64,000 bases of DNA from Macrostomum lignano. Lineage: Eukaryota. Below the pieces are notes generated by a model. It was given only the letters and a program-made list of their open reading frames with translations. It was not told the origin of the DNA and did not search any database. Positions 1 to 26,214 of the stretch are shown one piece after another (position 1 is the first letter of the stretch; every line of letters begins with the position of its first letter). The translations under genes were made by a program, and so were the position numbers. The stretch covers positions 331,426-395,425 of the forward strand of contig NIVC01000716.1 of the NCBI GenBank assembly GCA_002269645.1. Reading direction: 5' to 3'.

Positions 1-1
1 C

Positions 2-125
2 CTGCGGTCAAAGGAGTATGCTTTCACTACAGTTTCAGGGGAGTGTGTTACGATCAAGGGGGTTGATAAAAGCAGTACAAATATAAAGTTTGAAACATTT
101 AAAAACATACTATTGACAGATTACA
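2..125 (+). pseudogene. C-terminal fragment of a divergent protein-primed PolB (outer relic element), truncated at a junction near 115-125
   Basis: Frame from nt 2 reads LRSKEYAFTTVSGECVTIKGVDKSSTNIKFETFKNILLTD, matching the pPolB LRxKxY...KxKG(V/I)...IxFxxY/F motifs (compare LRAKSY...KSKGIPK in Polinton 1). Not in the ORF track. Confidence 0.7.
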
Positions 126-957
126 ATTTCATTGTTAGTAAACCTCTCTTTGAACAAAGTAGTTACCTGTTTGAGTTTGTTGGCTCTTTGTATTGAATTT
201 ATATTCTTCATTGTACTCTGTAGTTTCTTTTCAAGTGCTTTTAACTTCTCTTTATCATCAGCCGCCTTCTTAATTGCAATTTCGAGTCTAGTCTTTCGGT
301 GGTTTAACTCACTGCTAACAAGATTTGATATTTTAAGAAATATGTCATTTATACTACTTAGTTCTCTCCACTTATCATCATCAAAATAGTAAATACCATC
401 GCTATTGTAAATTATATTATTCTTCTTATATTCATAAACAAAGTTGGTTATGTTAACGTCAGTGAAATTATCATCAAGATACTCAATCCTACCATAGTAA
501 TCATATTTGCTTTTCCATTCCTTATATTTGTTATAGTTTTCTTTACTTGCCCATTTCTTTAGTGTACCGATAGTAAGTCTGTCCTGTGCATCAGCAGAGC
601 TGGCACTGGTGCTATTCCACTCCTTTTTACATGATTCGGAATCGAACTTATCATCATAATTTACTTTTGACCAATCAGTGAATACTTTGTACATTTCATC
701 ACCACTGCCTATGTCGCGGAGTATAAGTGCTACCTTGTACCAAGAATCATAGTCTTGGTTTTTGTGTTGTATTATACTTAACAACTTTGAAACTCCTTCA
801 CAAGTGGGTGGTGGAACGGTGCTTTTTAGTGCCTGTTTATCGGGTTCTTGGTTTTCTTTTTTATCCTGTGGCTCAATTAATCTATTTATCTCTTCAAGAA
901 CTACAACTGGCATGTCTATTAACCTTTCGGGCTTTATACGTTTGTATTCCCTAATTT
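110..957 (-). pseudogene. 3' part of D5-like primase gene (PriCT-2 plus D5-N region), split by Polinton 1 and truncated before the SF3 helicase
   Basis: DYDSWYKVALIL...FTDWSK...KF...C..EW...LTIGTLKKWASKEN is a PriCT-2 pattern; IIYNSDGIYYFDDDKW is D5-N-like. It joins in frame with 17135-17681 when the Polinton and one TSD copy are removed. Confidence 0.8.
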
Positions 958-963
958 CACCAT
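958..963. repeat. Left target-site duplication of Polinton 1 (CACCAT)
   Basis: CACCAT lies directly before AGTAG at 964 and recurs directly after CTACT at 17135-17140; 6-bp TSDs are typical of Polintons. Confidence 0.95.
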
Positions 964-1310
964 AGTAGAAGGCGTGAGGGGGCTTTTGGGACAAAATTTT
1001 TCACATCCTCCATAATCCCATTAAATCCATCTATATTATCCCCGACAGAATCAGAAAAAAGGGGGGTCGCACTCGCTCACAAAACATCCTCCATAATCCC
1101 ATTAAATCCATCCATATTATCCCTGACAGAATCAGAGCATAACAGGTGTCCTACTGTTATGCTCTGAGGGTTTATGCTCTGAGCATAATCCACTAACATC
1201 CACCCATAGCATCTTCGAAACAATCAGAAAAGAATCTGCATTCTTCTCCCCACATTCAATCCGCAATGTGCTACCACATCCCAAAGACTTTAAATCATCA
1301 GAGCAGGGTC
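964..1310 (+). repeat. Left TIR of Polinton 1
   Basis: Reverse complement of ~16787-17134; near-identical for ~300 bp, then degenerate. Contains one full and one partial 81-bp unit. Confidence 0.93.
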
Positions 1311-1760
1311 CTTACCCTTTGAAAAAATATAAATAATTTTATTATTCATTAGTAAGAATGATATATTTATTAACGGTTGCACAACTGATAGGATATGTAT
1401 CAACTATTACAAGATTATCAAAAATGGTAGAAAAAACAGACACTATGTAGGATCTGCGTTAGAATTCTTCAACAACATACAGAGCCAGCCTAGCGTTCCT
1501 TTGAGCCAGCAGCTAGATTCTCTAACGCCGTTAGAATTTTCTATGTGAAAATTTGGTGTGCCCAAGCTTATCTTGCGGGAAACTTTTCACATAGAAATTT
1601 CTAACAGCGTTAGAATTTCAAACCCACCGACTGAGTTGCACACAGTACTGAGAAAATTGCTACCCTCCTCTACTTAACCAATCGGCTGTCTCCAGTTGTT
1701 GAATCTACTCTTTGAAATTCTAACGCGTTAGAAAAATTCTAAATGAACTGAATTTAAAAA

Positions 1761-2438
1761 TTACACAACTTTCCACGCAGGATCACTGGCCAAAATTTCT
1801 TCTAGAAACTTCATCTTAGAGTTTAGTTCCCTAATTGGCATTGACACCTGTCTCAAGCCTGGGTAGGTAACAGACAGTTTGTACAGACGAATGTACAAAT
1901 AGCCAGTTGATTCCTGGATGTTTACATTTTTACACAAATGGGCGAACCGCACTTTAACATCTTGTCCAAAGTTCTCGGTGCGATAAGTTTTTAGCAGCCG
2001 CCCAACTTCGAGAATCCAATGTAGACCTCCAATTTGAGTCTTCTTGTATTTTGCTAGAGCCGCCTTCACCCTAGTGATGATGTTCTGCTCGCCAGATGGA
2101 AGCTGGTGATCAACAGCGTTTATCAGCTGATCAGCTAGTGTTACGCGGGATGCGTACAACTTCTCCCTGAATATCTGCAGATCCGCCATCTTCTTCTGCA
2201 GAGCCGCCGCCTTCTTCTCTTCGCTACTCACATTTTGCGCTTCATTCGCTGCGGCGATATCATCAGGGGCCATGGCGAAAAACTCGATTGGTAGGTCGCC
2301 AGTTTCTAGACCGAAAAAGGTGGTTAGTTCCTCTCTTCTTCTTGCTTGTAGATGTGACGGAATATCCTGTAAAACTCTTTGTAGCATGGCACAAAGGCCT
2401 TGCTTATCTGTCAAATGAAGATTCCACTCGACTTCCAT
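1761..2438 (-). CDS. Accessory protein of unknown function, 225 aa (Polinton 1 left arm only)
   Basis: Intact ATG-initiated ORF with a predicted helical character; absent from Polinton 2. Confidence 0.7.
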   Translation of the reverse strand: MEVEWNLHLTDKQGLCAMLQRVLQDIPSHLQARRREELTTFFGLETGDLPIEFFAMAPDDIAAANEAQNVSSEEKKAAALQKKMADLQIFREKLYASRVTLADQLINAVDHQLPSGEQNIITRVKAALAKYKKTQIGGLHWILEVGRLLKTYRTENFGQDVKVRFAHLCKNVNIQESTGYLYIRLYKLSVTYPGLRQVSMPIRELNSKMKFLEEILASDPAWKVV

Positions 2439-3276
2439 TTTCTAAATCTTCTTGTCTTCTAATCTTCTAGTTTGGCGGACAATTTCTTAGATCACTTTCA
2501 GCGTGCTTAAGTTCCTGCAGTCGTCGTTTCTCAGTCGCAGTTGATGGCATATGCGGGGAGAATCAACCCGAGTGTTTCTGCATTTGCTTAAATACAGCTA
2601 TACAGCTAAAAAATTCCAGAAAATTCTTAGACTGTACAATCTTGGAGTCAAGCAGGGAAAAAAATAATCGATATAGCTCAGTGAACGATAGAACATGAGG
2701 CGTGTGAATGTGAGGGTGCTTTAACTAGCTTCTAAGCGATCGATTCCCTCCACCCGTTTGAAGTCCCTGTACATTTCCTTGGTTGATTGGGTTTGTCAAA
2801 GCGGAAAGGAAAGCACGCGTGGAACTTGTACATTCGCAAAATCGATTAGAGGGCTGCGCTCCCTCAGCAAATAGGAGTTACCCCACCCCCTTCTGCTTCT
2901 CAACTTTTCAAAATGCAGCTGTTGCGCTTGGTTAGGGCTGAGAATAATAGTTAACCCTTCCCGACTCAAGCGCCTCTCTCTACCCCGCCCCATATCTTCA
3001 TACCGTATAGACCAACAAGGCGGGCCACATTCCGAGGCCAAATCGGCGGGCCGAGGCCAACTCGGCGGGCCAACTGGCCTCGCAATTTGGCCAATAATCA
3101 ATATCAATCAAGGAATCCCAAGCAGTCCATGCATGCCAATGGCGGTGAAGCGGTTGACTTTTTTTCATTTTCTGCTCTTAGCTCTCTGGAGAATGAGAAT
3201 CTCTCTTGTGCGCAACTCTTTAGGGAATAAAAAACTGTACTTACTCAAATCCACACTTGCTCATGCCCTTCCCGAT

Positions 3277-3777
3277 TCAAGCGCCCCTTTCTACCCCCAG
3301 CTCTTTCAGCAGTCTTCCCAATTTCTTGTTAGGAGCGCACAAAATAAACCCTACTCCCAAGCCTCCGCCCTCTCTTTCCGCACACCCGCCCTCTCTCCCC
3401 AAACACCCACCCTCGGCGCCGACCCCCAACCCCAATTTTGTCTTACTAAAAATAACAGCTTTAACTAGCTTCCGAGCGATCGACTCACGAAATCCGCTTG
3501 AAGCCCCAATATTGTCTAGTCTCTTAAGCATTTCTTTGTCCCACCGATTCTTCTCCTCAGGAAAATCTCTATACTTAACGTCGTGCCACATGCAGACAGA
3601 GTCTAGCTCATTCACAGGCTCATGCCCAGGATTTGGATTATTGTTTTTATCTAACTGTATTTCAAGTGGATTCAAAGGCCCGCAATATTTATAGCCGGGA
3701 AGTGTCCAGCCTTTGTTTGGATGAGGAAGCTTTTCTATCAGTCCATGTGAATCTATTTTACCACCAGAGCGCTGCAT
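3277..3777 (-). CDS. Parvovirus VP1u-like phospholipase A2 protein
   Basis: LPGYKYCGPLN (Ca-binding loop), CMWHDVKY (catalytic HD) and WDKEML. The likely start is ATG 3777, as in the copy at 40323. Confidence 0.88.
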   Translation of the reverse strand: MQRSGGKIDSHGLIEKLPHPNKGWTLPGYKYCGPLNPLEIQLDKNNNPNPGHEPVNELDSVCMWHDVKYRDFPEEKNRWDKEMLKRLDNIGASSGFRESIARKLVKAVIFSKTKLGLGVGAEGGCLGREGGCAEREGGGLGVGFILCAPNKKLGRLLKELGVERGA

Positions 3778-3807
3778 TATTTTATTTAAAATTTTCTTTT
3801 TAAATAA

Positions 3808-4833
3808 ATGACAGATCAGAAACTTAAAAAACTCTACTACAGCGACAAAGGATTCTTTGTAGGCAAAAATGCCGTTAGTAAACTCATGAAGCTGAGTAAG
3901 GAGCCAAAAGCTACAGTAGAAAAATGGCTCTCTAAGCAGGCTGTCTTTCAAGTCTATTTCCCACCAGTAAAATTTGAAAGGCCCCATTTCAGTATTTATA
4001 AACCTAATGAAGCGCACCAAGCAGATCTTTTGTTTCTCCCCAACGACTCAGGCTACAAGTATGCTCTTAAAATTATTGACATTGCTTCCAGATATAAGGA
4101 AGCTCGCCCACTCAAGACGAAGAAGTCAGAGGTTGTTGCCAGCGCACTGCAAGATATTTATAAAAACTCTCCGCTCACATACCCCCAAATCTTTATGACC
4201 GACCCGGGTAAGGAATTCATGGGTGTAGTGAAATCCCTTATGGAAAAGAAAAACACAGAGATTCGCTATGGCAGAACAAACTTGCACAGAGACCAGGCTT
4301 TTGTGGAAAGATTCAATCTAATTCTAGCCAAGAGACTATTCACTAAGCAGACAGCGCAAGAACTCAAACTGAGTGCGGGGCAGTACTATACCAAGTGGAC
4401 AGAAAGACTCCCCACTGTTATAGAGCAACTGAACAATGAAGTCACACGCATGACTGGATTGAAACCATCCCATGCAATTAAACAAGACACTGTCGAACTT
4501 AAGGCATCTCATAGAACACACAACACACACAACACACACAACACAAAACACACCTCAAACTACCCTAAGCTTCCAGGAGTTGAATCACCATACATACTGA
4601 CAAACTCTGAGTTTCTACGCTTTTTATATCTACCGGGAGAGCTAGAGAAAGACACCAAAAGAAGAGCTACAGATCCATACTTCAGCCTTGATGTACATAA
4701 AATAGACAGACATTTTACCTCCGACTCCGGTGACTATTACTTTTTATCTCAAGCCTTTAACCCTAAATCCCCCACGCGGTCATTCACTAGAGCTGAACTC
4801 CTAGTGATACCAGCTGACACAGAAATTAATTAA
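3808..4833 (+). CDS. Retroviral-type (rve) integrase
   Basis: HQADLL / MTDPGKEF / VERFN DDE triad; intact 341-aa ORF. Confidence 0.93.
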   Translation: MTDQKLKKLYYSDKGFFVGKNAVSKLMKLSKEPKATVEKWLSKQAVFQVYFPPVKFERPHFSIYKPNEAHQADLLFLPNDSGYKYALKIIDIASRYKEARPLKTKKSEVVASALQDIYKNSPLTYPQIFMTDPGKEFMGVVKSLMEKKNTEIRYGRTNLHRDQAFVERFNLILAKRLFTKQTAQELKLSAGQYYTKWTERLPTVIEQLNNEVTRMTGLKPSHAIKQDTVELKASHRTHNTHNTHNTKHTSNYPKLPGVESPYILTNSEFLRFLYLPGELEKDTKRRATDPYFSLDVHKIDRHFTSDSGDYYFLSQAFNPKSPTRSFTRAELLVIPADTEIN

Positions 4834-4849
4834 AATATTAAAATAAAAA

Positions 4850-5296
4850 ATGACAAAGATTGAAACCAGAACCATCAATAAACTCAATAAAATCATTGAA
4901 TCAAAGAAACCAGGTATTATATCAATTAAATGTGCCAAAGTAAAAATCGATCCCACGCAGCAAATACTTCAGTGTAATGAGCAAAGACACAGTATCACAG
5001 ATGAAAAGTCAGGAGGAATCCTACCATTAGCAGCTCTTATTCCGATCATTGCAGGCGCTGTAAGTGCCGCAGGTGGTGTAGCTGGAGGTGTAGCAACTGC
5101 TGTTAAAGCTGGGAATGATAGAGCCCACCAGCTGGAATTGCAAAAGATTGCAAGAGACAAAGGTATAACAATTAAGGCAGGAGAGGGCTGCCCCGATCGT
5201 GATGATTGTGAGAATGAAAATTCTATAAGCAAGTCTGACATTGTCAAAGCCATCATGACACTGCACAATGCTGGGTTTACAATAATGCGCATGTGA
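4850..5296 (+). CDS. Small core protein with adenovirus pX-like hydrophobic segment
   Basis: SGGILPLAALIPIIAGAVSAAGGVAGG resembles adenoviral pX (GGILPLLIPLIAAAIGA); conserved at 41386-41853. Confidence 0.7.
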   Translation: MTKIETRTINKLNKIIESKKPGIISIKCAKVKIDPTQQILQCNEQRHSITDEKSGGILPLAALIPIIAGAVSAAGGVAGGVATAVKAGNDRAHQLELQKIARDKGITIKAGEGCPDRDDCENENSISKSDIVKAIMTLHNAGFTIMRM

Positions 5297-5419
5297 TGAG
5301 GTTTAAAACCCCACTTTATCCAGCTTCATAAACCTAACGCTACTGATAGGATGTAGAAACAGTTCAACTTTTCTATCAGGGTAGTAACCCTCAAAAAATT
5401 TTTTATTTTAGAGAAAAAA

Positions 5420-8400
5420 ATGCCAAAAGCTAATCCAGCAAAAGATTTAGTCAACAAACATTTTTCAAAAGGCGTCTCATTTCAAGACAAAAGTAATTCA
5501 CTAAGAGAAGCATGCAAACAAAAGTTCAACACCGACCCTGGTCACCTGGGAAGCTATGAAAAACAGTTGGAAATCATCCAACAATTAGAATCCAACCAGT
5601 ATGCGCCTATACGAGTACAAAATCCTGCAAAGGAACACCAAGAGAGGAGTCGCAACTTAGTTAACAAATATGAAACTCTCACTGGTGAAAAAGCAAAGTA
5701 CCCACAAAATAAGCAGGAACAAGAGAAATTAGAGCAATTAATCCATTTAAAAGAGTCGGAGCTTGCCACTGAAGAGATTAATTTTGCACAGAGGAAGTTT
5801 ACAGAACATTACATAGAGTACACAATCCCAATTAACGGCACCACGGCACCACCGCAAACATCTACGACTATAAAGACAGCATCCAATCAGTTGTTGATCA
5901 CACACTCAAAACACGCAAGACCTTTAAACTACAGATATCATTCAAGATTGCGTTTTATATGCCTGCAAAACCTACTGAGCATCTCGAGTATTACATGACA
6001 ACAAAGGCAAAGCCATTCACCCCTACAGACACACTGGATCCTTTCCTTCAAGATGTCACTAAGAAAATTGAAGCGTTTACATCCAGAGGTTCCGGATGGG
6101 TCGTAGGGGGGATTCAAAGAGCGACTATCATGGTCATGAAATATGACCCACTTAAAGCCTCCCTTATCTAGAGCTCCCGCATAAGCTAGCCGGCAAAAAA
6201 GCTTGCATAAATGTTAAAAATAAAGACAATTGCTGTGCTCTATGGGCAGTTCTTCTGCACTTCTTTATGATAGTGTCCTCACCACCCCGAAAGAACCTCA
6301 AATTATCAAAATTATTTCAACTACTATCTCATCGAATGCGAAAAGAAGGGAATCAGGTTTGACAAAGGAGGCTTGGCGATCTCTCAGATCCCAAAGCTAG
6401 AAGAAGTGTTTAATAACAAAATTAGAATCACAGTCTTTGAGTGGAGTGAAAAAACTGAGAAAGTTCAACCGGTCAGATGTAGCAAAGACGTTTTAGATCC
6501 TGAGGGGAAAAGGCGGACTGAAGTGGATCTTCTAGTGATTGGTAATTTACTAGAGGAGGCTCACTATGTTTGGATTAAAGACTCATTCACAAGCAGTTGA
6601 ATAATCATCACGAGGCTGTTGCCATCTGCCGCTTGTGCCTTAAGCATTACAGTGGACCTGAGCGCTTTGAAAAACTAGCAGAGCATGAATTATCATGCGA
6701 GGATCACCCGACAAACTGCTCTCTTCCTTCAGCTGAAGAGAAGTATCTCCGGTTTAAGAACTATCACAAGATGGAGAAGCTCCCATTTGTTGTATATGCT
6801 GATTTCGAATGCTCAATCGTGCCAAAAACTCAAAAACAAACTCCAACTCAAAAACAAACTCAAACTCAAAAACATGTCCCCAATTCAGTAGCATATGCCT
6901 TTATTAATACAAAAGGACTTGTTGAGTATAATTTTTTCTTTGGAGAGCAGTGTGTGGAGCAGTTTATTGCCAGAATGTTAGAGTTGCAAAAAGTTATTAG
7001 CACCCTTCAACCTGTTCCAATAATGATGACTGAGGAGGATGAAAGCAATTTCCTATCAGCAACTCATTGTCACATCTGCAGGAAACAGTTAACTTGCACT
7101 AATATTAAAAACCTGACCGTTAGAGACCACTGCCACTATACTAGGAAATTTAGAGGTGCAGCGCATAACACCTGTAATCTAAAGCTAAAATCGAACATTC
7201 ATGATCTAACGATATTTTGTCACAACGCAAAGAACTATGACATGCATTTAATAGTTGAAAAAATCGGCATGATTCCAGACATACACCTTGATTGCATCGC
7301 AGAGAACAAGGAGAAGTTTAAGTGTGTTGATATTAAACAGGATAATTCAGGTAAAGGTAAAATAAGACTGAAGGATTCATATCAATTTCTAGCTGCCAGT
7401 CTAGACGAACTAAGCAAGAATCTAAAAGATGAACAATGTACATATACAAAGATGTTTGCAAGTAAAATTAACAATACTGATGAATCATTTAAACTTTTAA
7501 GAAAGAAATGCTTCTACCCCTATGAGAATATTACTGGGTATCACGTATTTGAAGAAGGTTTACCACCACAGGAGAAGTTCTTTTCAAAGCTAACAGACTC
7601 TGGAATCTCTGACAAAGACTATGAGCACGCGAAGCATGTTATAATTACTTTAATTGTCAAAACTTCTTCCAGTATCACCTGCTTTACCTCTTCACAGATG
7701 TGTTTCTGCTGGCCGATGTGTTTGAAACCTTCAGATATACCTGGTACACAGCATATGGCCTCGATCCAGCACATTATGTGTCTCTGCCTGCCACTAGCTG
7801 GGAATCTTTGCTTAAAATGAAATGGGATCAAGATCCAGATTGGTACATTGAACTTCTTACAGACATTGACATGTACAATTTTGTCGAATCGTCAAAGCGA
7901 GGGGGGATCTCAATTTGCGTTAACAGGTATGCAAAAGCAAACAATCCCTACATTGAATCTTACAATAAGGAGCAGCCCTCAAACTACATTACTTACTTGG
8001 ACGCTAATAATCTCTACGGGTGGGCGATGAGTCAAGATCTTCCAGTTAGAGATTTTCGATGGCTACCCTCATCAGAATTTAAACGGGACTTTTCATTGGC
8101 TGCCATTTATGAAGTTGATGTTTACATTCCACCAGAGCTTCACGACTATTTCTCTGACTTTCCACCCTTCCCAGAGAACATCAAGTGCCCGAAAATAATC
8201 GAAACTCCCAATGATAATAATGGAACTTGGCACCTGTCAGGAACAGAAAAAGAACATACAGAGAAACTAACACAGAATCTAAACAACAAGACACGTTACA
8301 AAATCCATTACAAACTGCTTCAATATTTTATCTCACTTGGTTGCAGGGTCACCAAAGTTCACAGGGCTCTTACATTTACAGAGGAAGCGTGGATGAAACC

Positions 8401-9278
8401 CTACATTGATAAGAACACCCAGTTTAGGACCAAAGCAACCAACGACTTTGACAAGAACCTCTTTAAGTTAGCCAACAACTCTGTCTATGGCAAGACTCTT
8501 GAGAATGAGCGGAAAAGAACAAACTGAAACTTGTTACCTCATCAGAGCCTGTGTTATTCAGGCAAATATGTCAAAGCCAACATTCAAAGAACTCCATATC
8601 TTTAATAGCTACTTAGGTGTGATCATATTTTACAAAACCAAGGTGACGCTGCGCAAGCCGATCTATACAGGTGTCACTGTTCTCGACGAATCAAAACGTC
8701 TGATGTACCAGTTCTTCTATGGCATGAAGCAGCAGTACAAGGATAAAATGAAACTCTTGTACACTGACACAGACAGTTTTATTATGGACATTCAAACAGA
8801 AGACATTTATCAGGACATGCTGCAGCAAAAAGATTTGTTTGACTTGTCTGAGTATGATGAATCTTGCAGGACACAGAATGGCGATCAAGTGTTTGACGCC
8901 ACTAACAAGAAAGTGATTGGGAAAATGAAGGACGAGATTGCTGGTGACATAATCACTGAATTCATTGGGTTGAGAGCAAAGTCCTATTTTATAAAATGTG
9001 AGTCGTCAGACCCAATTAAAAAATCAAAGGGAATTCCGAAACGTGTGGTTAGGAAGGAAATTAATGAAGCTGAATACAGAGACGCCTTGAATTGCAACAA
9101 AAAGACATCACATGAGTTCTCAAAGCTACAATCCAAAAACCATATTATTCACACAATTCAGCAAAAGAAGATTGGGCTGTCAGGTGCAGATAACAAGAGA
9201 TTCATTTTTGATGACAATATCAACAGTCTATCGTTCGGGCATTGGAGGTTAGGTTTAGGTTTAGGAGGTGGAGGTTAG
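5420..9278 (+). pseudogene. Protein-primed family B DNA polymerase, several frameshifts
   Basis: VYADFEC (Exo I), RDHCH...AHNTCN endonuclease VII-like insert, HNAKNYD, LDANNLYGWAM, KLANNSVYGK, YTDTDS and LRAKSY motifs, spread over ORFs 5420, 5959, 6373, 6597, 7700 and 8487. Confidence 0.95.
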
Positions 9279-9330
9279 GTTTAGGAGGTGGAGGTTAGGT
9301 TTAGGAGGTGGATATTGGGTTTAGGTTTGA
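9244..9330 (+). repeat. G-rich ~21-bp minisatellite containing TTAGG at the pPolB 3' end
   Basis: ggaggttaggtttaggaggt repeated about 3-4 times; a degenerate equivalent lies at 45804-45895. Confidence 0.8.
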
Positions 9331-9357
9331 GAGAAAGTTTAATAAACCTCACAAAAA

Positions 9358-9759
9358 ATGACGACAAATAACTCTCTTGAAGATTTGGCTAATGAACTGG
9401 AAATCCCAAACTTTAGAGGAATATTTATGAGGGACACTCTGCCTGATTTTCCTCTAAGAAAGGAATGCGGCATCATGAACTTTGACACCACTGATAAGCC
9501 AGGATCTCATTGGGTTTGCTGGGTGATTGATCCCGATCGCAAGCACAAGTGTTATTACTTCGATAGCTATGGGACGGCAGTACCAGAAGAGCTAAGAAAT
9601 TATATGAAGGGGAAAAATAATAAAAAAATTTACCACTCAGACTTTATTCTCCAAGGTCTTAGCAGTGATATTTGCGGTGAGTTGTGCATGACTGTTTTGT
9701 ATGCAATGACCAAAACACGAAAGACCTACAAGGAAATTATTCTTGGCTGTGTTTCATAA
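9358..9759 (+). CDS. Adenain-type cysteine protease
   Basis: GSHWVC (His), YFDSYG (Asp), LQ...SDICG (Gln, Cys); intact 133 aa. Confidence 0.92.
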   Translation: MTTNNSLEDLANELEIPNFRGIFMRDTLPDFPLRKECGIMNFDTTDKPGSHWVCWVIDPDRKHKCYYFDSYGTAVPEELRNYMKGKNNKKIYHSDFILQGLSSDICGELCMTVLYAMTKTRKTYKEIILGCVS

Positions 9760-9802
9760 GGGTTCATTGTGCATTTCTCGTTGTCCTTCTTTCCACATAA
9801 TG

Positions 9803-10495
9803 TTAAAGAACTTTCTCGAGTTCATTTCTCAGCTGACTCATGTCATCAGTACCGACCATGTTCAAGTTCATTCGAATTGATTGTTCATAAAGATCCTGAA
9901 TGGTTTTGAACTCATCCTCTGAAATGAACTTATCCTCTATTGCCCTTGAAATGTACCCTATGATTGATGTGTGCACCCCTTTCTCTTTTACTTGCTTCTC
10001 CTGTAGCTGCTTTAGCTTTTTTCGCCTGTTTCGCGCTAATGCTCCAGTAATTGCTGAAATAAGTCCACATGCAGCACCCACAGAGCCGAGAGGGATTGCG
10101 ATTGGGGCTGTGATGACTGGCAACGTTGAGACAGCTGCAGCAGATCCAGATAGAACAGACACAGATCCTAGAATCATATTTAAATAAAGGTAAATATCAA
10201 CATGAAGTATTATTTGAGTATTGCTGAATCATATTGCTGTAGAATCATATTGCTGTAGAATCATATTGCTGTAGTCAAAAAATTTACAGTGGCTGTCATA
10301 GCGCTTAATTTTCTTTGTGTTGTGGAAAATATTTTTTTCAAGATCATCGCGCATTTTTTGAATCTCCACCAGTCGAAACTGTTGAGAGTTACAAGTAATA
10401 ACAGGGTAGAGTTTTTGTTGCTCATATTGGGGTGCACTAGGTGCACTAGGTGTTGTGGGAGCGTTCGGATCATAAAGAGAATTTTGAGCATCCAT
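9803..10495 (-). pseudogene. Membrane protein with N-terminal PSAP and LYPVI motifs, disrupted
   Basis: ORFs 10229-10495 and 9803-10177 together match 46344-47053. It is broken by a triplicated 16-mer (aatcatattgctgtag) and a short AT-rich insert. Confidence 0.8.
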
Positions 10496-10526
10496 TTTTT
10501 AGGGAATTTTTTAAAAAAATCGGCAA

Positions 10527-10965
10527 CTAGTTGGTGGTGGTTAGATTTGTTTTACGGTTGATTGCTTCGTCTGCAGTGACGGCAACAGGTCTCTGAATCT
10601 GCCTATTCATTATCTGTGAGCTCCATTCTACGCATGATCTCAAACAAGTCGGTTGGATCACTTGTTTCCCTTGTGGTCTGTGGTGCCTCTTCAGCGTCAA
10701 TGTTTTTGAGATTATGCAAGCGTTCAAGACGACCGATTCTTCTCACCGATTTCTGCCATTCGGTAAAAACTAAATCTACAAAGACTTTATTTGCAGTAAT
10801 TATTACTTTGATTTGATCATGCAACGCTGTTGACTGAGTCATGAACTCTTCTAAATTCCTCACTTTACCTGTGTTGGTTGCGACGTTTTCTTTAATTCTA
10901 TCATGCAACGCTGTTGACCGAGTCATGAACTCTTCTAAATTATTTACTTTAGCTGTGTTTGTGAA
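10527..10965 (-). pseudogene. 5'-truncated paralog of the coiled-coil gene, specific to Polinton 1
   Basis: FTNTAKVNNLEEFMTRSTALHDRIK... matches the C-terminal half of 11001-11735; the segment is absent from Polinton 2. Confidence 0.7.
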
Positions 10966-11000
10966 AAAAATCCCTAGAAAAAAATAAAAAAATTATAAAA

Positions 11001-11735
11001 CTACCCAGTTGAAAGATCTGTTTTCTTTTTGATAATTTCATCTGCAGAAATGACCGGACGAGCAGCAGATTCTGCTTCATCAATAGCAATGTCACGAAGA
11101 TTGAGTGTTCTCTCCAGACGATTAAGCCTCCTTATTATTTTACCCCAAGAGCTATACATTCCGTTTAGATAGCTACTGTGTGATACATCGTTTCTCTTTA
11201 GTGCTTCAAGTTTTTCTTTAATTCTATCATGCAACGCTGTTGACTGGTTCATGAACTCTTCTAAATTCCTCACTTTAACTGTGTTGGTTGCGACGTTTTC
11301 TTTAATTCTATCATGCAATGCTGTTGACTGGTTCATGAACTCTTCTAAATTATTGACTTTAGCTGTGTTTGTGAAAACTCCTCCTTCAAGAATACGCATC
11401 CGTCTATCAATGGAATTTCCCAGAAGATTAACTGATGATCTCAAGCCGTTGATTAGCGAGACTATCGAAGTTATTTCTGACCTTAGTTCATTAGTTGCGT
11501 TTAACAACGGCACATAAAGCTTATCACTTTCAAACTTCTGTCTAGCTACTTTAAGCCTGAGATCTTCCATGTTTATTTGCAACTGGTGCATGGAGCGCTC
11601 TAGGGTTTTCAGTCTGTTTTTATTCAGTTTGATATCTGGGATCTCCTCATCAGTGTTAATGTAGCGCTTATCAAGGAAGGAAGTTGTGAGAGTGCTGTTG
11701 CTTGTAGTTGACTCACCTGCAAAATTAATAGACAT
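11001..11735 (-). CDS. Coiled-coil protein with an internal 29-aa (87-bp) duplication
   Basis: Intact 244-aa ORF with NLEEFMNQSTALHDRIKE twice; ortholog at 53818-54504. Confidence 0.8.
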   Translation of the reverse strand: MSINFAGESTTSNSTLTTSFLDKRYINTDEEIPDIKLNKNRLKTLERSMHQLQINMEDLRLKVARQKFESDKLYVPLLNATNELRSEITSIVSLINGLRSSVNLLGNSIDRRMRILEGGVFTNTAKVNNLEEFMNQSTALHDRIKENVATNTVKVRNLEEFMNQSTALHDRIKEKLEALKRNDVSHSSYLNGMYSSWGKIIRRLNRLERTLNLRDIAIDEAESAARPVISADEIIKKKTDLSTG

Positions 11736-12552
11736 TTTTTAAATGAAAAATTAAAGGTAAAATTCTTTTCTCCTTATTAATCATGACAAACTGATAAGGT
11801 TGGTTCCACTTTTCATAGCATATGTTAACAAATTCCTCCTGTGATATTGTTCTGTTAGAGTTCTTAGCTGGATATGTAATGTGAGCTGGGGCAATTACCT
11901 CATTATAAAATCGTTTCAGTCGATCCTGTGGTATGGTTGGGAAAAGGAGAATCAAATTACAGTTACCTCTAATTGTTTTATTTAGCAGTTCAAACCAGTT
12001 TTGGGCAATGTAAATAACATTGCAATTATTATGTCTACCCCGGGTGAAATAATTTTCTATCTGTTTCTGGGGACCGGTCATGCAGTCATCGAAGACAATC
12101 AGGTGCTTTCTCCCCTTTTCTAGTTCATCAGGTTGAGGTAAGAGTTTAGTTTTAGGATCTATCTGTGGATCTCCATAAGTGAAAACTTTAATGTTTTGCC
12201 ATTTTTCATTGTCTGGGATGTGCTTTGCGTATTCAGTGGCTACAACTTCCGGGTTGCTGTTGAGGTCTTTTTGATGTCTAAAACATTGAATAATATCTTC
12301 CTTGTTGAGTTTGTTCTGTAGGCCCGCTACTAGCATTTTATACTCATCTTGATACAGAGTGGGTGAATAGATATGTAGTGTGTCATAATCGAGGAATCCA
12401 GGTCTGAGGAGCATGTTAAAAACTCTGAAGGTTTTCCCTGACCCAGATGAGCCAACAACAATGCATCGGAAGTGCCCTGGAATTATCTCGTTGTGAGCAA
12501 ATTTTATCTGATTGCGTGTCCAGTGGGGATGAAAGTCGTTTGTGAAGTCCAT
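11725..12552 (-). CDS. A32/FtsK-like genome packaging ATPase
   Basis: Walker A GSSGSGKT, Walker B LIVFDDC, and TRGRH motif; intact 275 aa. Confidence 0.93.
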   Translation of the reverse strand: MDFTNDFHPHWTRNQIKFAHNEIIPGHFRCIVVGSSGSGKTFRVFNMLLRPGFLDYDTLHIYSPTLYQDEYKMLVAGLQNKLNKEDIIQCFRHQKDLNSNPEVVATEYAKHIPDNEKWQNIKVFTYGDPQIDPKTKLLPQPDELEKGRKHLIVFDDCMTGPQKQIENYFTRGRHNNCNVIYIAQNWFELLNKTIRGNCNLILLFPTIPQDRLKRFYNEVIAPAHITYPAKNSNRTISQEEFVNICYEKWNQPYQFVMINKEKRILPLIFHLKNVY

Positions 12553-12699
12553 TTTTTATGTAAAAAACTTTTTCTTTTTAAACTTGTGTATTTAAGACGC
12601 GTGTGTCTTTTTTCGGGTTGTGTGTGTCTTTTTTCGACTAGTCCTACATCCGACTAGTCCTACACCCTCACACCTCTTTTACCGTCAGGGTGCACCAAA

Positions 12700-13079
12700 T
12701 TAGTCAAATTTAAAACCGCCTCCTTTCTTATATTCAGCTCTCATCTTTGCGTAGATGGCTGGATCGACACTATCTGCACTCGGTGCAAGGGGTTGAATAT
12801 CTGGTATTGATTTCCGGGTTTCATTAACCGTATCTTTAATCTTTTTGGCTGCTGTGGCTACACTGCCAGCCGCTTCGGCAACGTTCTTGATGTTCTCTTT
12901 GTTCTCTCCAATGACCTTAAAAATCTTGGCCCCTGAGCGATCAAATCGGCAAGGCCATTCCCAGAGCGTTCTTTTCTTGGATAGTGGCCTGCAGGGAAAA
13001 GTCCAGATCCACGTTTAATGAGATTAAGTTCCTCTTTGTCATAGTATTTGTCAATGTCTTTTTCGAAAATAATTGGCAT
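12700..13079 (-). pseudogene. Amphipathic-helix core protein (pVI/cupiennin-like), one frameshift
   Basis: MPIIFEK...RGSGL...SGNGLADLIAQG, then a shifted frame ending KKGGGFKFD*; ortholog at 55516-55923. Confidence 0.65.
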
Positions 13080-13095
13080 CTTTTTAAATAGAAAT

Positions 13096-14309
13096 TTATT
13101 TTTTGTTGAACCGCGAAAGCAGAAGCTCTCTCGCCCTCTTATCGATGTATTTTCTCTCAAGCATTTCATTGAGGATGTTGACAAATTCTTTTCTATTCTC
13201 GTCTTTCATTCCGGTCTTTGCCGCTCCTAGAAGAACAGCTAACCGCTTGTAGAATTCAGGCATGCCTTTTCCGGAAGAGCTTGGAGGTGATTCGAATGAT
13301 TGGTCAGAGGAGGAACTGTCATGTGGCGCTTGTCTTTGCTGAGGTGTGAATACTCTGTCATTGATTCGCTTCATTCGTTCTGGGGAGAGCCGCTCTAATT
13401 GTCGCCATTCATCTGGGCGCTGGTTTCTGTACTGGGAAATCTCATTTAACCCTGCTTTTTCAAGCGCTTCTAGTACTTGTTCGGGTGTGATTTGTTGCTG
13501 TGGCGGTGGAGGTTGTTGTGGTTGTGGTTGTGTTTGTGGTTGCTGCTGTTGTGGTTGTTGTAGTTGTTGTTTTGGTTGCTGCTGTTGTGGTTGCTGCTGT
13601 TGTGGCTGTGGTTGTTGTGGTTGTTGTCTTATGACCTCTTCTTGATCTGGCAAACCAAACCATTGTTGAAAGTATTTGTATTTTTTAAACCTGTTCAAGA
13701 CAATCCCGTTTTCATGTGAAATTTTCAAAACACCGTCGTTCTTGAGCATATCTATATCCCTCTCTAAAGCGAAGGTAACAAGATCTTTGTAATTTTCGAA
13801 CTGCTTTTTAGACGTTTTCTCTAGATTTTTAGTCATGTAGTCGAGTAAACTTTGAGTGAAGGGGATTCGTTTAGTTTCTGCGCCTTTATTGATTAAAATA
13901 TTTCCTTTGTCACTTCAATGTTGTAATCCGCCGGTTCCCCGGTAATATTTTTTCGCCAGGCGCTAATTCCAAAAATATATTTTCCATCATCCAATACGGG
14001 GCCAAAAAAGTTATCCGTCACTTTCATCTGCACTGGTTGTCCTGGTTCCTGAGCCTGTGGTTGTCCCGGTGAAGATGGTATTTTACCCAATGTGTTTTGC
14101 AAGTGGCTCTCTTGAATATCATCAACTGCTTCCTTCACAGTGTCGAGGTTTTTCTTCGCTTCTGTGTATCCGGGTTTGTGAAATTCAGTGGCTGCTTGGA
14201 CGAATTCATTGTAGGATTGTTGTTCCTTATTTATTAGCCCGGTAACTCGTTTCTCTGCTTTTGCTAGCTTCTCCAATTCAGATATCTGCTGTGTACTTTT
14301 TCGCTTCAT
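13096..14309 (-). pseudogene. Q-rich Polinton protein, frameshift near 13890
   Basis: ORFs 13893-14309 and 13096-13836 equal the single 418-aa ORF at 55907-57163. The C-terminal RLAVLLGAAKTG...EFVNIL..ML segment resembles a motif common in Mavericks. Confidence 0.78.
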
Positions 14310-14339
14310 TTCTTATTTTATTTTATTTTTAGTTAAAAA

Positions 14340-15623
14340 ATGAACGACCCACTGACACCAGTTTTCTACAAAATTAACAAGCCTATTTTGAGTGATGATA
14401 GCACAACCAAAGCGCCTCAGGTAAGAATTCCCAGTCAGGAAAATCAGAATGAAACTAATCTTGGTCCTGGCCAAACACTGACATTCACATACAATGGATG
14501 TTCGTCTTTGGTTAGTGTGCACAGTTTTAAGAGCGGCTTCCATATGACATTTCAATTCAAGACAAAAGGTGGTGCGGATGCGGCTCGTGCTAACGTTGAC
14601 AAGCATGATGCGGATGTGGCTCTGATTAGTAACTTTTGGGCGTACATGTTCAAGGAGTTTTGTGTATCGAATGGGAGCACTGAGTTGGAGCGAATCGCCA
14701 ACTTTGGAATTGTCTATGACGCTCATTGTTTGATCGAGAATCCTGATTTTATTCAATTGGGAAGTGGTGCGGGTTTTATTGCAGATGAAAAAGAATGAGA
14801 TATCAATGACAGTGGCTATAAAAATAGGAAGAAGAGATACAACTATGCATTGCAAGGTGCTGATGATGCTGCTAAAACCCGCTGTATCGGTCTGTTGATG
14901 TATTTGTACCACTGAGATTCATGAGTGGATTCTGTAATACATTTAATCGACTGACTAGCAACTTTAGCTACACATTTAGACTGACTAGAGATGATCGCAG
15001 TAGAGTGTTGTGGACTGGGGCGGACCACACTGGGATGGCTGTGAAGCTAACCGGAATCGAGCTGTATTTGGAAGTCATTGAGCCGAAGACCGCACTAAAA
15101 GCGGACTATCTTAAGGCAATAGAGAAGGACATTGATGTTGCATACACGGCCTACATGTGTCGAGATGAGCGAAACGAAACTAGAACAAACATCTGCATTA
15201 AAGAGGGATCATGCAGCAATCCAAGGTATATCATTATTAATGAGAAACCCAAATAGCATTATACGCTACATGCATGGAGACGTGCGGTCCATTCAGCATG
15301 AAATCAGTGATAATCTTTACCCTGCACTGCCACAAAATGGAGATTTCAGTCAGAACAAGATTAGCAAATTTTACAGCGAGTTGGTCGACTTGGCTGTGAA
15401 AGAGAACAATGGAATTGCTATCACTGCTCTTCAATATGGAACTCTATATCCGATGTTTGGCGCTGATGTGTCTGCCAGACAAATGCCTACTGATAACAGC
15501 CCTGTGAATATCGTGACTAACATTGAGAGGACTACCGCAACACCCGTGGACCTGTACATTATCTATGCATTTGAGAGGAAGGTGAAGCTTAACATGATCA
15601 ACAATTCATCCAGTAAAGTTTAA
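14340..15623 (+). pseudogene. Major capsid protein (probable double jelly-roll), nonsense codon at 14796 and a frameshift
   Basis: Colinear with the intact 428-aa ORF at 57194-58480; size and position beside the minor capsid gene fit the MCP. Confidence 0.8.
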
Positions 15624-15646
15624 ATATTTTTTTTGTGGGTGAAAAA

Positions 15647-16510
15647 ATGGAAGCGATTGCTGAAAGACTAAACAACATTGTTTCACACTCTAAGGAGAGC
15701 ATTCCTGTTACAATAACTGGGCGAATTAATGACTCAAACGGGATATTTGTTGAAAAATTAGAGCAGGCGATTCGCCTGGATCCAGGTGCTAATTACCATG
15801 TCTATCTTAACGACTTCACTGGTTGGTCAAACGTTCCCAATGTGATAGCAGCAAATAATAAGTTTTATTACAAATGGAAAGGTGCAGCAGCAGACCCTGT
15901 GGTATTCCATGTGAGCACGCAAAGTGTGGATACCTACAATAACTTCCTAGAAAATGTCTTTACTAAGAGAGGCCATTTTGAGACACCTGATGCGAGTAAG
16001 CCAGAGAAGAAACTGTTCCCTGTCAAACTAACCTATGATCTCACTGTAATGAGAGTGGTCATGCAAGTTCACAAAGATGCGGAGGTTGAGTTTAAAGATG
16101 ACACTTGGTATAGGGAACTGGGATTCGAGAAGAAAGTTTATAAGGCAGAATCCGCGGCGCGGACCGCCACTCAAGCATCGGGGACCGTTAAAATGGCCCG
16201 GGAAAATGTAAGCGGTTTGTTCTTAGCACCCAATATTGCAGACATTGTAAAGGGTTTAAATATTCTAATCAGAAGCAATCTCAGTCTTGATTGGGTATTT
16301 AAGGGAAAGCGAACGAATATTTTGTACAATATCTCCAACTCTGTAGCTGGAGGACAGATGGTGGTAGAGAAACCAAATCCAGTGAAAAGAGTTGTATTGA
16401 GTAATAAGGAGATTCACGAGATTGTGCTACAGTTTGAGACTGAAGATGGGGTAGGTGTTGATTTCAACGGTGAAGAGTTTGTATTGACGTTAATCATTGA
16501 GAGAATGTAA
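15647..16510 (+). CDS. Minor capsid protein (penton-like)
   Basis: Intact ~287 aa; LEQAIRLD..NYHVYL.DF and C-terminal EIVLQFETEDG.GVDFNGEEF pattern typical of Polinton mCP; directly follows the MCP. Confidence 0.8.
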   Translation: MEAIAERLNNIVSHSKESIPVTITGRINDSNGIFVEKLEQAIRLDPGANYHVYLNDFTGWSNVPNVIAANNKFYYKWKGAAADPVVFHVSTQSVDTYNNFLENVFTKRGHFETPDASKPEKKLFPVKLTYDLTVMRVVMQVHKDAEVEFKDDTWYRELGFEKKVYKAESAARTATQASGTVKMARENVSGLFLAPNIADIVKGLNILIRSNLSLDWVFKGKRTNILYNISNSVAGGQMVVEKPNPVKRVVLSNKEIHEIVLQFETEDGVGVDFNGEEFVLTLIIERM

Positions 16511-16514
16511 GAAA

Positions 16515-16751
16515 TCACAATTGCTTAATGATTTCTGCAAAGTTATAATAGCTGTCGTAATCGTTAATGACTACTCCATACTTATGAAACCAGTGTCTTT
16601 GAAGAGCTAGATTAATATTAGGGACATTGATATCAACGTTGGGCCAATATTTTCTCATGTACTCGCTGCATTCCTTCTTGCATTGGTACTTGCTCTTGTA
16701 ATTAGGCTCGTGCGCTTTGTAATAAGAACCTGGAGAGATGATTGGAAGCAT
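16515..16751 (-). CDS. Conserved 78-aa subterminal protein of unknown function
   Basis: Clear orthologs at 37813-38055 and 59905-60147 with the frame retained despite nucleotide divergence. Confidence 0.7.
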   Translation of the reverse strand: MLPIISPGSYYKAHEPNYKSKYQCKKECSEYMRKYWPNVDINVPNINLALQRHWFHKYGVVINDYDSYYNFAEIIKQL

Positions 16752-16786
16752 TTTTATTGAAAATTTAATTTTTTTCGGAGGATGAG

Positions 16787-17134
16787 CACCCTGCGCTGAT
16801 AATTTAAAGTTTTTGGGATCTGGTTTCGCCGCTTCGGATTGAATGTGGGGAGAAGAATGCAGATTTTTTTCTGATTGTTTCGAAGATGCTATGGGTGGAT
16901 GTCAGTGGATTATGCTCAGAGCATAAACCCTCAGAGCATAACAGTAGGACACCTGTTATGCTCTGATTCTGTCGGGGATAATATGGATGGATTTAATGGG
17001 ATTATGGAGGATGTTTTGTGAGCGAGTGCGACCCCCCTTTTTTCTGATTCTGTCGGGGATAATATAGATGGATTTAATGGGATTATGGAGGATGTGAAAA
17101 ATTTTGTCCCAAAAGCCCCCTCATGCCTTCTACT
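16787..17134 (-). repeat. Right TIR of Polinton 1
   Basis: Ends ...ctcatgccttctact; inverse of 964-1310. Confidence 0.93.
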
Positions 17135-17681
17135 CACCATCGACATAATAGAAACCTGGTGGAGCAAATACTAAGGCGGGAATATCAAAACCCACACTTT
17201 GTTGAATCGTTACTTTTAATCTATCTACCTTGTTAAAGTAAAAGTGATGACCCTTGTTTGTCTGAACAATCCAATCACAATGAGTCATACACAGTTCATT
17301 CAACCCAGGGCATAGGTCAGCATTATCAATATCGATTACGGTTATATTTGAGTTTCTAGTATCTATCCAAATAATGTTGTCTACATCTGGTCGAAATGGT
17401 GGTGAGGTTGAATTCCTATCTGCTTTGGTTGGCATTCCTGACGGTATTTTTTTCTTTGTTTTACTATTCCATGTTACACTGCAACTTCCGAATTTAAAAT
17501 TGCGTTCTCCATAGAGATTAATTAGTTTATCGTACGATTTTGTTTGTTTTAAATTTGTCAATCTTAGTGGTGGGGCATCATGGTTTTGAAGCGGATCCTG
17601 TACGATCACAGGAGAGAAACTTGAATCGTTTTGATTTTTTCTTTCCATTTTATTTAAAATAAATTTAACAATATAATTCAT
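17135..17681 (-). pseudogene. 5' part of D5-like primase (AEP Prim-Pol domain); includes right TSD CACCAT at 17135-17140
   Basis: VIDIDN (motif I DxD), QTNKGHHFYF (motif II) and GFDI (motif III); continues ...YVDG|EIREYKR into 957. Confidence 0.82.
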
Positions 17682-18006
17682 CAGTTTCTATGTACTTCTC
17701 AAGGGTTATGGGGAGTTTGAAAATGTTCAACTTAAGCATGACGAAAAATTCATCATTCCTTATGTGCTGTCTCGAAATCAATGCCCATTTATCAACATGT
17801 GCAAGATATACTCTGAATGAATACAAATATGGGGGGCATTTACAATCGCTGTGTTTTAATATTTCTGCTTTATATTCATCGTAAGCTTTATCAATTTCTT
17901 CAATTAGTCGAGCCTTTCGAGTGGGTGTTTTTATTTGAGAGAAATTTATAATAGAATCATAATACTTTTGTGGCAGTGCATTTCGTACATTTGGGTTAGC
18001 TTCCAT
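17665..18006 (-). CDS. 113-aa protein of unknown function, outer relic element
   Basis: Intact ORF overlapping the primase start, with the same A-run start context as the Polinton genes. Confidence 0.5.
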   Translation of the reverse strand: MEANPNVRNALPQKYYDSIINFSQIKTPTRKARLIEEIDKAYDEYKAEILKHSDCKCPPYLYSFRVYLAHVDKWALISRQHIRNDEFFVMLKLNIFKLPITLEKYIETDELYC

Positions 18007-18513: not shown

Positions 18514-19364
18514 ATTGAAGTGGGTTGCAAATGCATGCTGTAGCAGCTTGGAGGGGAGTTGATGAATGGCTGTTCGCAGCTAATCTAAACCTTTAATTCT
18601 TTGCATGATGCTGGAGGGTTTTTGAGTGAGTCAGAGAGAATAGAAGACAGAGGTGATGAAGATATGGAAGAAGCCATGATTCTTAGTCATCGTGATAACA
18701 ATGCTGTCTACAATTCGAATACATTCAGTCCCACAGGGTGAAGGAGAATTTTTTTGCAATTCAGAAGTAATTCTATTGTGCAAAATCTGCATCAGAATTT
18801 ATTCATGTTTCAGCAAGCCAATAGAAATGTTGAGTGCTGCTTTTCATTGTTGCAGAGTTGACAAGTGGCAGTTTTGTTATAGCTGACTGAATATCTAAAG
18901 CATTTCCTAGAAATAATGGTTTACTGAAGGCCATTTTATATATATATATATATTACTATCGTTGAATTGGATGACACTTTCATATTGTATATACCTGAAA
19001 TTGCATTAAATTGACCCGTGAATCCAACCTTTCTCATGGTTTTAGAGCTGGAATCGTGAAAATTGCACTTTTTCAAAATATTTGAAAATTACAAAAAATC
19101 GCTGTTTTCAGACCATTTTCACCTGTTTTTAGTCATTTTCACCTGTTTTTAGTGATTTTCAAAATGAGTGAGGGCATGAGGGCGAGGGCACCCCCCTTTT
19201 TAAAAAGTATAAAAATTCCGGAAAATCTGTGTTCTGTGAAATATACCACAGGCCAATGCCCCCCACATGCCCTCACCCTCAACACCCTCACTCACAGATA
19301 TATGTATATTTATATATTTTTATATTTATCACACACACACTTGCAACTCTGACCTCCCGGTAGT

Positions 19365-19463
19365 AGTAGTAGTATGTTATAAGGGGCTGACTCATCCAGC
19401 GAGCTGGCGCGTAATGCGCCCGAGCGATAAGTGTGGCGCAGCCCCTTATAACATACTACTACT
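19365..19463. mobile_element. 99-bp MITE-like element with 25-bp perfect TIRs beginning AGTAGTAGTA
   Basis: agtagtagtatgttataaggggctg ... cagccccttataacatactactact. Confidence 0.75.
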
Positions 19464-21400: not shown

Positions 21401-21625
21401 AAATATACGCGCTGCATGCATCTGCGATCTCTTCCTAACTCGGCATCTTGCATTCGTCTTCGTTACTACGAAAAGTACAACAGACGGCAAAAACAGGGTG
21501 ATTCCTATTAGCATGAAAGGGAAAGAAGACGTTACGAACAATGCAACAAGCAGGAAAATTGAACAACTCATCAGAAAAATTGCAAAAATCAGACAAAGAC
21601 TAATTCTCTAACAAAAGTTTGCAAA

Positions 21626-25400: not shown

Positions 25401-26214
25401 TGGTCCGCCAAACTATTTTGGAGCTGAGGCTCAAGCGAGACGCTAACAAAACGAAAAGCGTAAACCGTACACAGGGCTAATAAGCTCTCTCGATGATATA
25501 TATATTGCAGTCAGTCAGAATCAGCCAGCGTGGAGGGGGGTGGGTGAGATGGGCCTGGGCTAAATCAGCGTACATAGAAAATTGAATAATAAACACGTAC
25601 GTACATTAAATCACGCAGTGGAATTGGAAAGAAAATCAAGCTACTAATCTACCTCCCAAACAATATATATTCTGTGAATATTCATGAAAATATTTTTCCA
25701 TGGGTATTTATTTACGCAGAGGGTCGATTGAGCATTCTGGTGTATTCCATGGTACAAAACCTGTCTTCATGTCTTCGATCGGCAGATTGCACTCGGTTTT
25801 CGACTGCTGAAGCCAACTGTTAAACACCAACAGCCCACTTGCTTCACTTAAGAGTATCCGGCGACTTCGAGCTCTTAATTGTTTAGATCTCGAATGTCGT
25901 CTAAGTTTCCGCGGATTTCTCGTAGTTGTTACTTAGCATTTGGTTTACACTGATCTAGTCCTTTTCGAAAAATTTCTTCCACATCTTCTACCGAAAGTCT
26001 CCAACATAATCTCCAGCAAAGTCTCTACTGAAGTCAGCTAGTACGTGGGTCTAACGTGTAGCTTTCTTCCTATTTTCCTTACGTTCGTATTAATAAGCTT
26101 ATATCTTTGCTTCAAGATCAGTCACTGCATCGAAAGAGCAGTTGCACAGTGAAATAAACCGTTTATTTGCACCGATGCAAATAAATGAAATTTACACTGA
26201 GACCATAGACGTTC

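Follow-up and report, generated by a model that had tools for sequence, protein, structure and literature searches.

A Polinton family of Macrostomum lignano that pairs an exonuclease-eroded polymerase with a D5-type primase-helicase, seen at a locus where another Polinton splits the primase-helicase gene

Protein-primed family B DNA polymerases (pPolBs) of the phi29 type need neither helicase nor primase, their exonuclease domain, TPR2, palm and fingers forming a tunnel that splits the duplex (PMC4974454). The exonuclease motifs ExoI-III, within a TP-vOTU-EXO-PALM order, are typical for Polintons without defining them, and were conserved in the Polinton pPolBs surveyed by Jeong et al. (PMC10748475). 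Loss of the exonuclease goes with gain of a helicase in mavirus and Tlr1-like elements (PMC11161782), and a pPolB together with a primase-helicase is uncommon (Yutin 2013, PMC3671162). Superfamily 3 (SF3) helicases occur with mavirus-related pPolBs (PMC13215967), helicases are scattered in coral elements (PMC11131425), primase-helicases are found in insect-associated polinton-like viruses (PLVs; PMC11296320), and virion modules have been transferred between adintovirus lineages, with one figure legend naming an SF3 helicase (PMC8502044). The present locus lies in a stretch of 64,000 nucleotides from the flatworm Macrostomum lignano (contig NIVC01000716.1, positions 331,426 to 395,425; the window), in which a member of one Polinton family (Polinton 1) is inserted into the primase-helicase gene of a member of another (family B), whose pPolB has an eroded exonuclease.

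The primase-helicase gene of this B copy lies on the minus strand in two pieces. The 5' piece (17141-17681; 180 aa) encodes a predicted Prim-Pol-type archaeo-eukaryotic primase (AEP) domain with DxD, His and Asp motifs, and the 3' piece (110-963) encodes PriCT-2 and the start of D5_N, the last few codons being antisense pPolB sequence. A target-site duplication, CACCAT, flanks Polinton 1 (left copy 958-963, right copy 17135-17140) and stands in the same reading phase in both pieces. The initial annotation, which was made from the sequence of the window, had proposed that removal of Polinton 1 with one CACCAT rejoins a single open reading frame (ORF) of 464 aa. This was borne out by the matching phase and by uninterrupted copies that run through the site, and the summed lengths of the pieces (541 + 854 nt, or 465 codons, by arithmetic only) agree with the 464 aa. 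Searches of the genome assembly (G000) returned 91 and 87 matches for the two halves (all 94 candidates scored), and four other copies held uninterrupted, intronless primase ORFs of 829–833 aa in one frame through the insertion site, linked to pPolB. A host-gene origin of the primase was rejected, as the uninterrupted homologs have no introns and have Polinton genes as neighbours.

Of the three domains ascribed to the rejoined ORF, PriCT_2 was matched in the 3' piece (E 1.2e-11) and Prim-Pol weakly in the 5' piece (E 0.0022, below the Pfam cut-off), while D5_N had no Pfam match in the window because only its first part survives there. The uninterrupted protein matched Prim-Pol (E 0.005, below the cut-off), PriCT_2, D5_N (E 5.2e-12) and DUF5906. 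A profile of 24 relatives matched African swine fever virus (ASFV) C962R and poxvirus D5/E5 with E about 1e-40 to 1e-43; Prim-Pol was matched by 16 of the 24 aligned relatives (best 3.7e-14), and the DxD, His and Asp motifs align. Besides D5_N, the B protein carries an SF3 helicase with Walker A, Walker B, motif C and an arginine finger. The structural model (96 sequences, mean pLDDT 82.8) matched the same proteins, among them vaccinia D5 (VIA Z 33.8, 406 aligned, rmsd 6.1) and ASFV PrimPol, in searches that are dominated by the helicase part and barely probe the AEP domain; folding the N-terminal 297 aa from a single sequence gave no useful model (pLDDT 38). The best database relatives were 37–45% identical. 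By its predicted domains and fold, the B gene is a D5-type AEP-PriCT2-D5N-SF3 primase-helicase of the giant-virus type.

In the alignment, the B pPolB retains all three polymerase motifs (A, B and C) as well as the Cys and His of vOTU (motif names after PMC4974454 and PMC11161782), motifs A and C being kept across the B copies scored; the alignment also points to a putative terminal-protein domain. Its exonuclease domain is eroded. ExoI reads YAILD or HAILD in all 23 covering B copies, compared with YADFE in Polinton 1 and in two further families of the same genome, C and B'; the ExoII Tyr is replaced in 22 of 22 copies; and ExoIII is absent from 23 of 23, two in-frame deletions having removed the KGxYPY block and ExoIII (two further rows that do not cover the ExoI/ExoIII region were left out of the count). 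The span from ExoII to the end is 82 aa in B, against 170 in C and 158 in B'. Among the best 120 of 1730 pPolB homolog hits, 8 were too partial and none of the 112 assessable sequences had the B pattern: all four carboxylates were kept in 98, 11 start after ExoI, one differs by a lone D-to-N substitution, and in two large gaps extend into the polymerase as well.

The initial annotation had called for a leftward extension and a pPolB tree. The extension recovered the whole of B, and in the tree (FastTree on the polymerase part, with 121 sequences of 380 aa or more, 482 columns and a midpoint root; no mavirus sequence included) the B polymerase was sister to that of family C, with a FastTree support of 0.997. 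Family C is abundant, its pPolB is ~51% identical to that of B with intact exonuclease motifs, and no primase was found in its two mapped copies. Since B is sister to an exonuclease-intact, helicase-less family, exonuclease loss and helicase gain would fall on the same branch. The B pPolB is nested among exonuclease-intact Polinton pPolBs (50–53% identity), a position that argues against membership of the mavirus-type virophages.

As the initial annotation had also suggested, the interrupted lineage has both a pPolB and a D5-type primase-helicase. The two genes stand tail-to-tail: 23 contigs contain the 300 nt over both stop codons as one contiguous stretch, and 4 more do so in part. Two arrangements of B exist, in which the block from a 246-aa ORF to a 113-aa ORF is inverted relative to the capsid module (L053/L054, L099/L180, L102, L103, L105, L111 and L112 versus L041, L044/L045 and L100), and the 113-aa ORF, primase, pPolB and 246-aa ORF are kept together in both. 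All 72 helicase matches in G000 lay in B-type contigs (77 of 77 candidates scored). A diverged relative (G000:C2974) has the same exonuclease erosion and gene order, with a pPolB 57–65% and a primase 37–54% identical to those of B, and the pairing is therefore not recent.

Selection was assessed by setting differences present in at least two copies (shared) against private ones, with near-duplicates dropped. For the whole primase gene (20 copies), there were 88 nonsynonymous (N) and 76 synonymous (S) shared differences (omega 0.28) and 147 and 60 private ones (omega 0.59; Fisher p 7.5e-4), and stop codons numbered 0 among the shared and 14 among the private differences. The helicase part had a shared omega of 0.19 (43 N / 54 S) against a private value of 0.62 (p 3e-5). 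The polymerase was the most constrained region tested (shared omega 0.12, 26 N / 50 S; private 0.44); the TP and vOTU region had a shared omega of 0.16, and the endonuclease VII insertion 4 N / 1 S. Judged by these counts, helicase and polymerase both show purifying selection.

Family B' shares with B a block of 8.4 kb that begins at the 246-aa ORF and reaches the integrase, at 98.4–98.7% nucleotide identity (contigs G000:C2071, C25/C176, C4675, C781 and C1449; L149-L151, L163-L175). Outside the block, its terminal inverted repeats (TIRs) differ from those of B (902 nt), and its pPolB (1275 aa) is in the opposite orientation, 44% identical to that of B, and keeps all exonuclease motifs. No primase was found in the six mapped B' contigs; elements without the primase also lack the eroded pPolB. 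The joint between the module and the B' pPolB was seen at 15 places in 14 contigs. B' copies differ by 0.1–0.5%, B copies by 0.6–2.7%, and B' from B by 0.9–2.9%; the low divergence of B' fits a young burst. The B' joint occurs as well in a remnant with 5% divergence (C12), so that the swap may have run in either direction. B' also holds two unknown ORFs of 211 and 163 aa. In G000:C1874 a B' terminal repeat abuts B sequence (L207:3934-6368), with one side in the contig, possibly a second Polinton-in-Polinton insertion.

We favour, with some reserve, the reading that the B helicase replaces a lost capacity for strand displacement, which would make B an independent animal case of the exonuclease-loss and helicase-gain pattern of mavirus and Tlr1. 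The terminal-protein domain would prime at the B TIRs and pPolB would elongate. In phi29-type polymerases a tunnel forces strand displacement; the shortened exonuclease domain of B would fail to close it, and a hexameric SF3 helicase would open the duplex ahead of a non-proofreading, perhaps poorly displacing polymerase. In the weakest step, the AEP domain might re-prime stalled or displaced strands.

A number of observations weigh against this reading. The pattern in mavirus and Tlr1-like elements is accounted for by fidelity, not strand displacement, in PMC11161782, and a pPolB that retains its entire exonuclease is known in fusion with a helicase (PMC12721341), so that helicase gain does not require exonuclease loss. 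The exonuclease remnant of B is conserved (shared omega 0.20) and may therefore still act as a structural wedge. The span from ExoII to the end is a crude measure, because it amounts to just 80 aa in one homolog among the 98 with all four carboxylates. Loss and gain occurred once on the B branch, so the correlation is one event and not a series, and the diverged relative C2974 is a single broken copy. For the primase domain, the Prim-Pol matches of B (E 0.002–0.005) are below the Pfam cut-off, residues 15-103 of the model have a pLDDT <50, and shared omega was 0.48 against a private 0.55 for the AEP and PriCT part (Fisher p 0.76) and 0.37 against 0.92 for the AEP core (p 0.087); the sign of purifying selection on the AEP domain is weak. 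The site-count expectation also ignores transition bias, and the copies, through shared ancestry, are not independent. We put forward more tentatively, as slightly short of an even chance, the fuller account in which B gave up proofreading and self-sufficient displacement by taking the mavirus route independently and may replicate with a captured giant-virus-type primase-helicase, possibly by primed displaced-strand synthesis, with C and B' making a three-way test possible and nested insertions providing raw material for swaps.

Two other explanations of the B replication module seem unlikely. The AEP-SF3 protein could be the main replicase, with pPolB shrinking to a terminal-protein or priming role as B approaches the condition of group 2 Mavericks and PLVs that have no pPolB. 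In group 2 Maverick-Polintons, superfamily 1 (SF1) or SF3 helicases fused to a polymerase or AEP often take the place of pPolB (bioRxiv 10.64898/2026.06.19.733378), the AEP motifs of B are intact, and its nearest metagenomic relatives (37% identical) are on short contigs without pPolB, although the two nearest of these contigs are only ~3 kb long. A replacement in progress is, however, at odds with a polymerase part that is the most constrained region and an AEP part that is the least, and with a two-gene state common to a relative at 57–65% identity. Slightly less probable again is that the two features are unrelated, the primase-helicase being a mobile replicase cassette that is carried along or aids repair or integration, and the exonuclease having decayed for another reason, such as mutation tolerance. 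Elements with a second replicase exist and AEP-SF3 genes have been argued to move alone (bioRxiv 10.64898/2026.10.13.758929); B' shows, moreover, that the same capsid module works without a primase. Yet in B' the primase and the eroded pPolB went missing jointly and an intact pPolB was acquired, the helicase occurs in this genome only with the eroded pPolB and stays beside it when the block is inverted, and it is under purifying selection, all of which speaks against a passenger gene.

The position of Polinton 1 raises a separate alternative. Polinton 1 is nested in the primase-helicase gene of family B, and the virus-in-virus insertion proposed earlier is evident from the target-site duplication, the TIRs and the split gene. 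Targeted hyperparasitism, in which Polinton 1 seeks B elements or the B primase gene, is very improbable: three more Polinton-1 copies lie within ~60 kb of the locus and the B' end in G000:C1874 abuts B sequence on one side, but none of 28 other Polinton-1 ends lay directly in B (30 loci; 40 of 637 candidates scored; a few share flanks), and none of the other large insertions seen in B primase genes gave a match to Polinton 1. One of the 28 ends has a B TIR ~1 kb away. The nesting is best read as chance and incidental, and a nested insertion is by itself ordinary; Polinton 1 would have entered the B gene with a 6-bp duplication as a chance event that killed one gene copy. B preceded Polinton 1 at this site, so that the earlier description of B as older holds for the order of insertion at the locus. 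It does not hold for the age of the family, as the B copy of the window differs from another B copy by 0.6% in the capsid module and 2–3% in the primase gene, against 3–6% among the Polinton-1 copies at hand; an older B family is thus not supported by divergence. No bridging piece for the insertion joint was found among the public-contig matches listed, and contigs of four public runs did not bridge the deletion joint described below; such contigs show presence only, and neither result is therefore evidence. No RNA data set was listed as containing the sequence, which likewise says nothing for or against expression.

Polinton 1 (964-17134) opens with AGTAGA and closes with TCTACT; it has TIRs of ~370 nt, with inverted arms of 300 nt (99%). 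It contains a PLA2-like ORF, an rve integrase, pX/mu, a fragmented pPolB, a protease, an A32 ATPase and a fragmented major capsid protein (MCP). Its Pfam matches include DNA_pol_B_2 and an adenain-type protease, several being below the cut-off and the protease match to Peptidase_C5 just below it. With TIRs, a 6-bp duplication, integrase (INT), pPolB, ATPase and MCP present, this copy is a decayed Polinton. The exonuclease motifs are intact in its family, and it has no primase.

B had been described as merely Polinton-like and as ending at 18006. It is a bona fide Polinton (INT, pPolB, ATPase, MCP, TIRs and 6-bp duplication) that extends from G000:C716:319322 to window position 19463. Its right TIR (18865-19463, ~590 nt, ending in CTACTACT) is 93% identical to the left TIR at G000:C716:319322, and the target-site duplication GCCGCT (19464-19469) has the same hexamer before the left end; B is thus a complete Polinton, bounded by TIRs, present in multiple copies and flanked by a target duplication of its own. 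Its genes are a PLA2-like/rve integrase (PF00665, E 4.5e-10, above the cut-off), two small ORFs, MCP (PF21738, E 1.9e-13), an A32 ATPase (PF04665, E 6.9e-06) and a 243-aa ORF; then a probable minor capsid protein and a probable protease, a 469-aa F5/8-type ORF and the 246-aa SLATT-like ORF; then pPolB and, on the opposite strand, the primase-helicase and the 113-aa ORF. The last, of unknown family, lies at 17665-18006 on the minus strand, just upstream of the primase gene, as it does in the B copies and the diverged relative. The putative maturation protease and minor capsid protein had no Pfam match and resembled their Polinton-1 counterparts in BLAST (E 1.5e-7 and 4e-7). B and Polinton-1 proteins are 20–36% identical, in agreement with the distinct lineage proposed earlier. 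The 469-aa ORF (L041:5300-6706) has an F5/8 type C carbohydrate-binding domain and is a candidate for a fibre or attachment role. Near the integrase end of B lies an ORF for an Eco47II-like restriction endonuclease (E 2e-6; L045:9604-9999), and family C has a homolog of it with 62% identity. At L159:1457-3095 (G000:C1884), a decayed B copy is joined by a diverged region of Polinton-1 type with pPolB and protease (71–74% nucleotide identity).

At the left edge of the window, positions 1-126 (+ strand) hold the C-terminal part of the B pPolB, cut by a deletion, and the remaining ~12 kb of B lies to the left; the pPolB tail reported at the window start corresponds to bases 2-126. The initial annotation had placed a deletion near 115-125 that removed the helicase and the end of pPolB. 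That loss was supported, and the joint was corrected to 124-126, with 3 nt of microhomology: the SF3 helicase part and the last ~50 pPolB codons are gone, about 1.29 kb in all (1277–1294 nt missing relative to five copies that hold both sides). A deletion derivative common to several copies was considered and rejected, as the joint was present in one of 40 scored matches, i.e., in the window copy only.

To the right, B is flanked by a Ty3/Gypsy-type pol fragment with RNase H and integrase (19470-21243, + strand). The region 19470-35229, between two Polinton-1 copies, consists of stacked long terminal repeat retrotransposon fragments, Gypsy-type and, by ORF reading, BEL/Pao-like. The second Polinton-1 copy occupies 36630-61248, with its AGTAGA end at 37200 and its other end at 60679; its inverted repeats run ~570 nt past the usual ends, where no direct duplication is present, and it is interrupted by ~7 kb of inserted sequence (about 47050-53830) that contains a Transposase_21-like ORF. 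Just left of B, G000:C716:291601-316700 (L201, L043, L042) contains another Polinton-1 copy and a more diverged relative. The cluster thus comprises at least five Polintons within ~100 kb.

Each ingredient of the B replication module is already known, and the combination in an animal Polinton was not found in print. A search of the main texts of mostly open-access papers returned no animal Polinton with an exonuclease-less pPolB and an AEP-SF3 gene, a negative on which the element maps of PMC8502044, the distribution of helicases in corals (PMC11131425) and the supplements of the two 2026 preprints could bear. Scans of IMG/VR returned two PLV-like loci (31–32%) without pPolB in the stretch examined; scans by the primase alignment and by pPolB returned none. 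Eleven loci came from a metagenome scan, none with a pPolB match to the B protein, the two closest being ~3 kb. The tyrosine-recombinase-like look of a neighbouring gene in one metagenomic locus (L182) was set aside as an impression only, having no Pfam match.

Compared with the Polintons/Mavericks (adintoviruses; Polintoviricetes; PMC8502044, PMC11161782), B has the same TIRs with AG...CT ends, 6-bp duplication, rve integrase, pPolB with vOTU Cys/His and endonuclease VII insertion, A32 ATPase, double jelly-roll MCP and PLA2-like domain, and its pPolB is nested among animal Polinton polymerases; it differs in a pPolB without ExoI and ExoIII and in a separate AEP-PriCT2-D5N-SF3 gene. With the mavirus-type virophages and the Tlr1-like PLVs and transpovirons (PMC11161782; PMC13215967) it has in common an exonuclease-less pPolB and a helicase, and mavirus, too, has an rve integrase and encodes its SF3 helicase separately. 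Unlike in these, the origin appears independent, the polymerase being sister to that of a Polinton family (C) that shares the genome and has its exonuclease intact; the exonuclease domain persists in shortened form, an AEP domain is joined to the helicase, and the host is an animal with no giant-virus partner known. The domain order and fold of the primase-helicase resemble those of the AEP-SF3 replicases of PLVs and group 2 Mavericks, poxvirus D5 and ASFV C962R. Elsewhere such a gene is described as a substitute for pPolB (bioRxiv 2026.06.19.733378) or a rare second replicase on single contigs (bioRxiv 2026.10.13.758929), whereas B keeps both genes in many copies. The relation of B to B' recalls the pPolB1/pPolB2 exchange of nematodes (PMC10748475), where near-identical virion and integrase genes also go with two pPolBs in one genome; pPolB alone was swapped there and the TIRs were conserved, while between B and B' the TIRs, pPolB, its orientation and the primase-helicase change together. 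The link between exonuclease loss and helicase gain was earlier drawn from two ancient, very divergent cases (PMC11161782), and B shows it at shallow depth. With an exonuclease-intact sister at ~51% identity (C) and a helicase-less element with the same capsid (B'), one genome holds three natural enzymes that are directly comparable, and switches from pPolB to AEP-SF3 in Polintons and PLVs may pass via a stable two-gene state.

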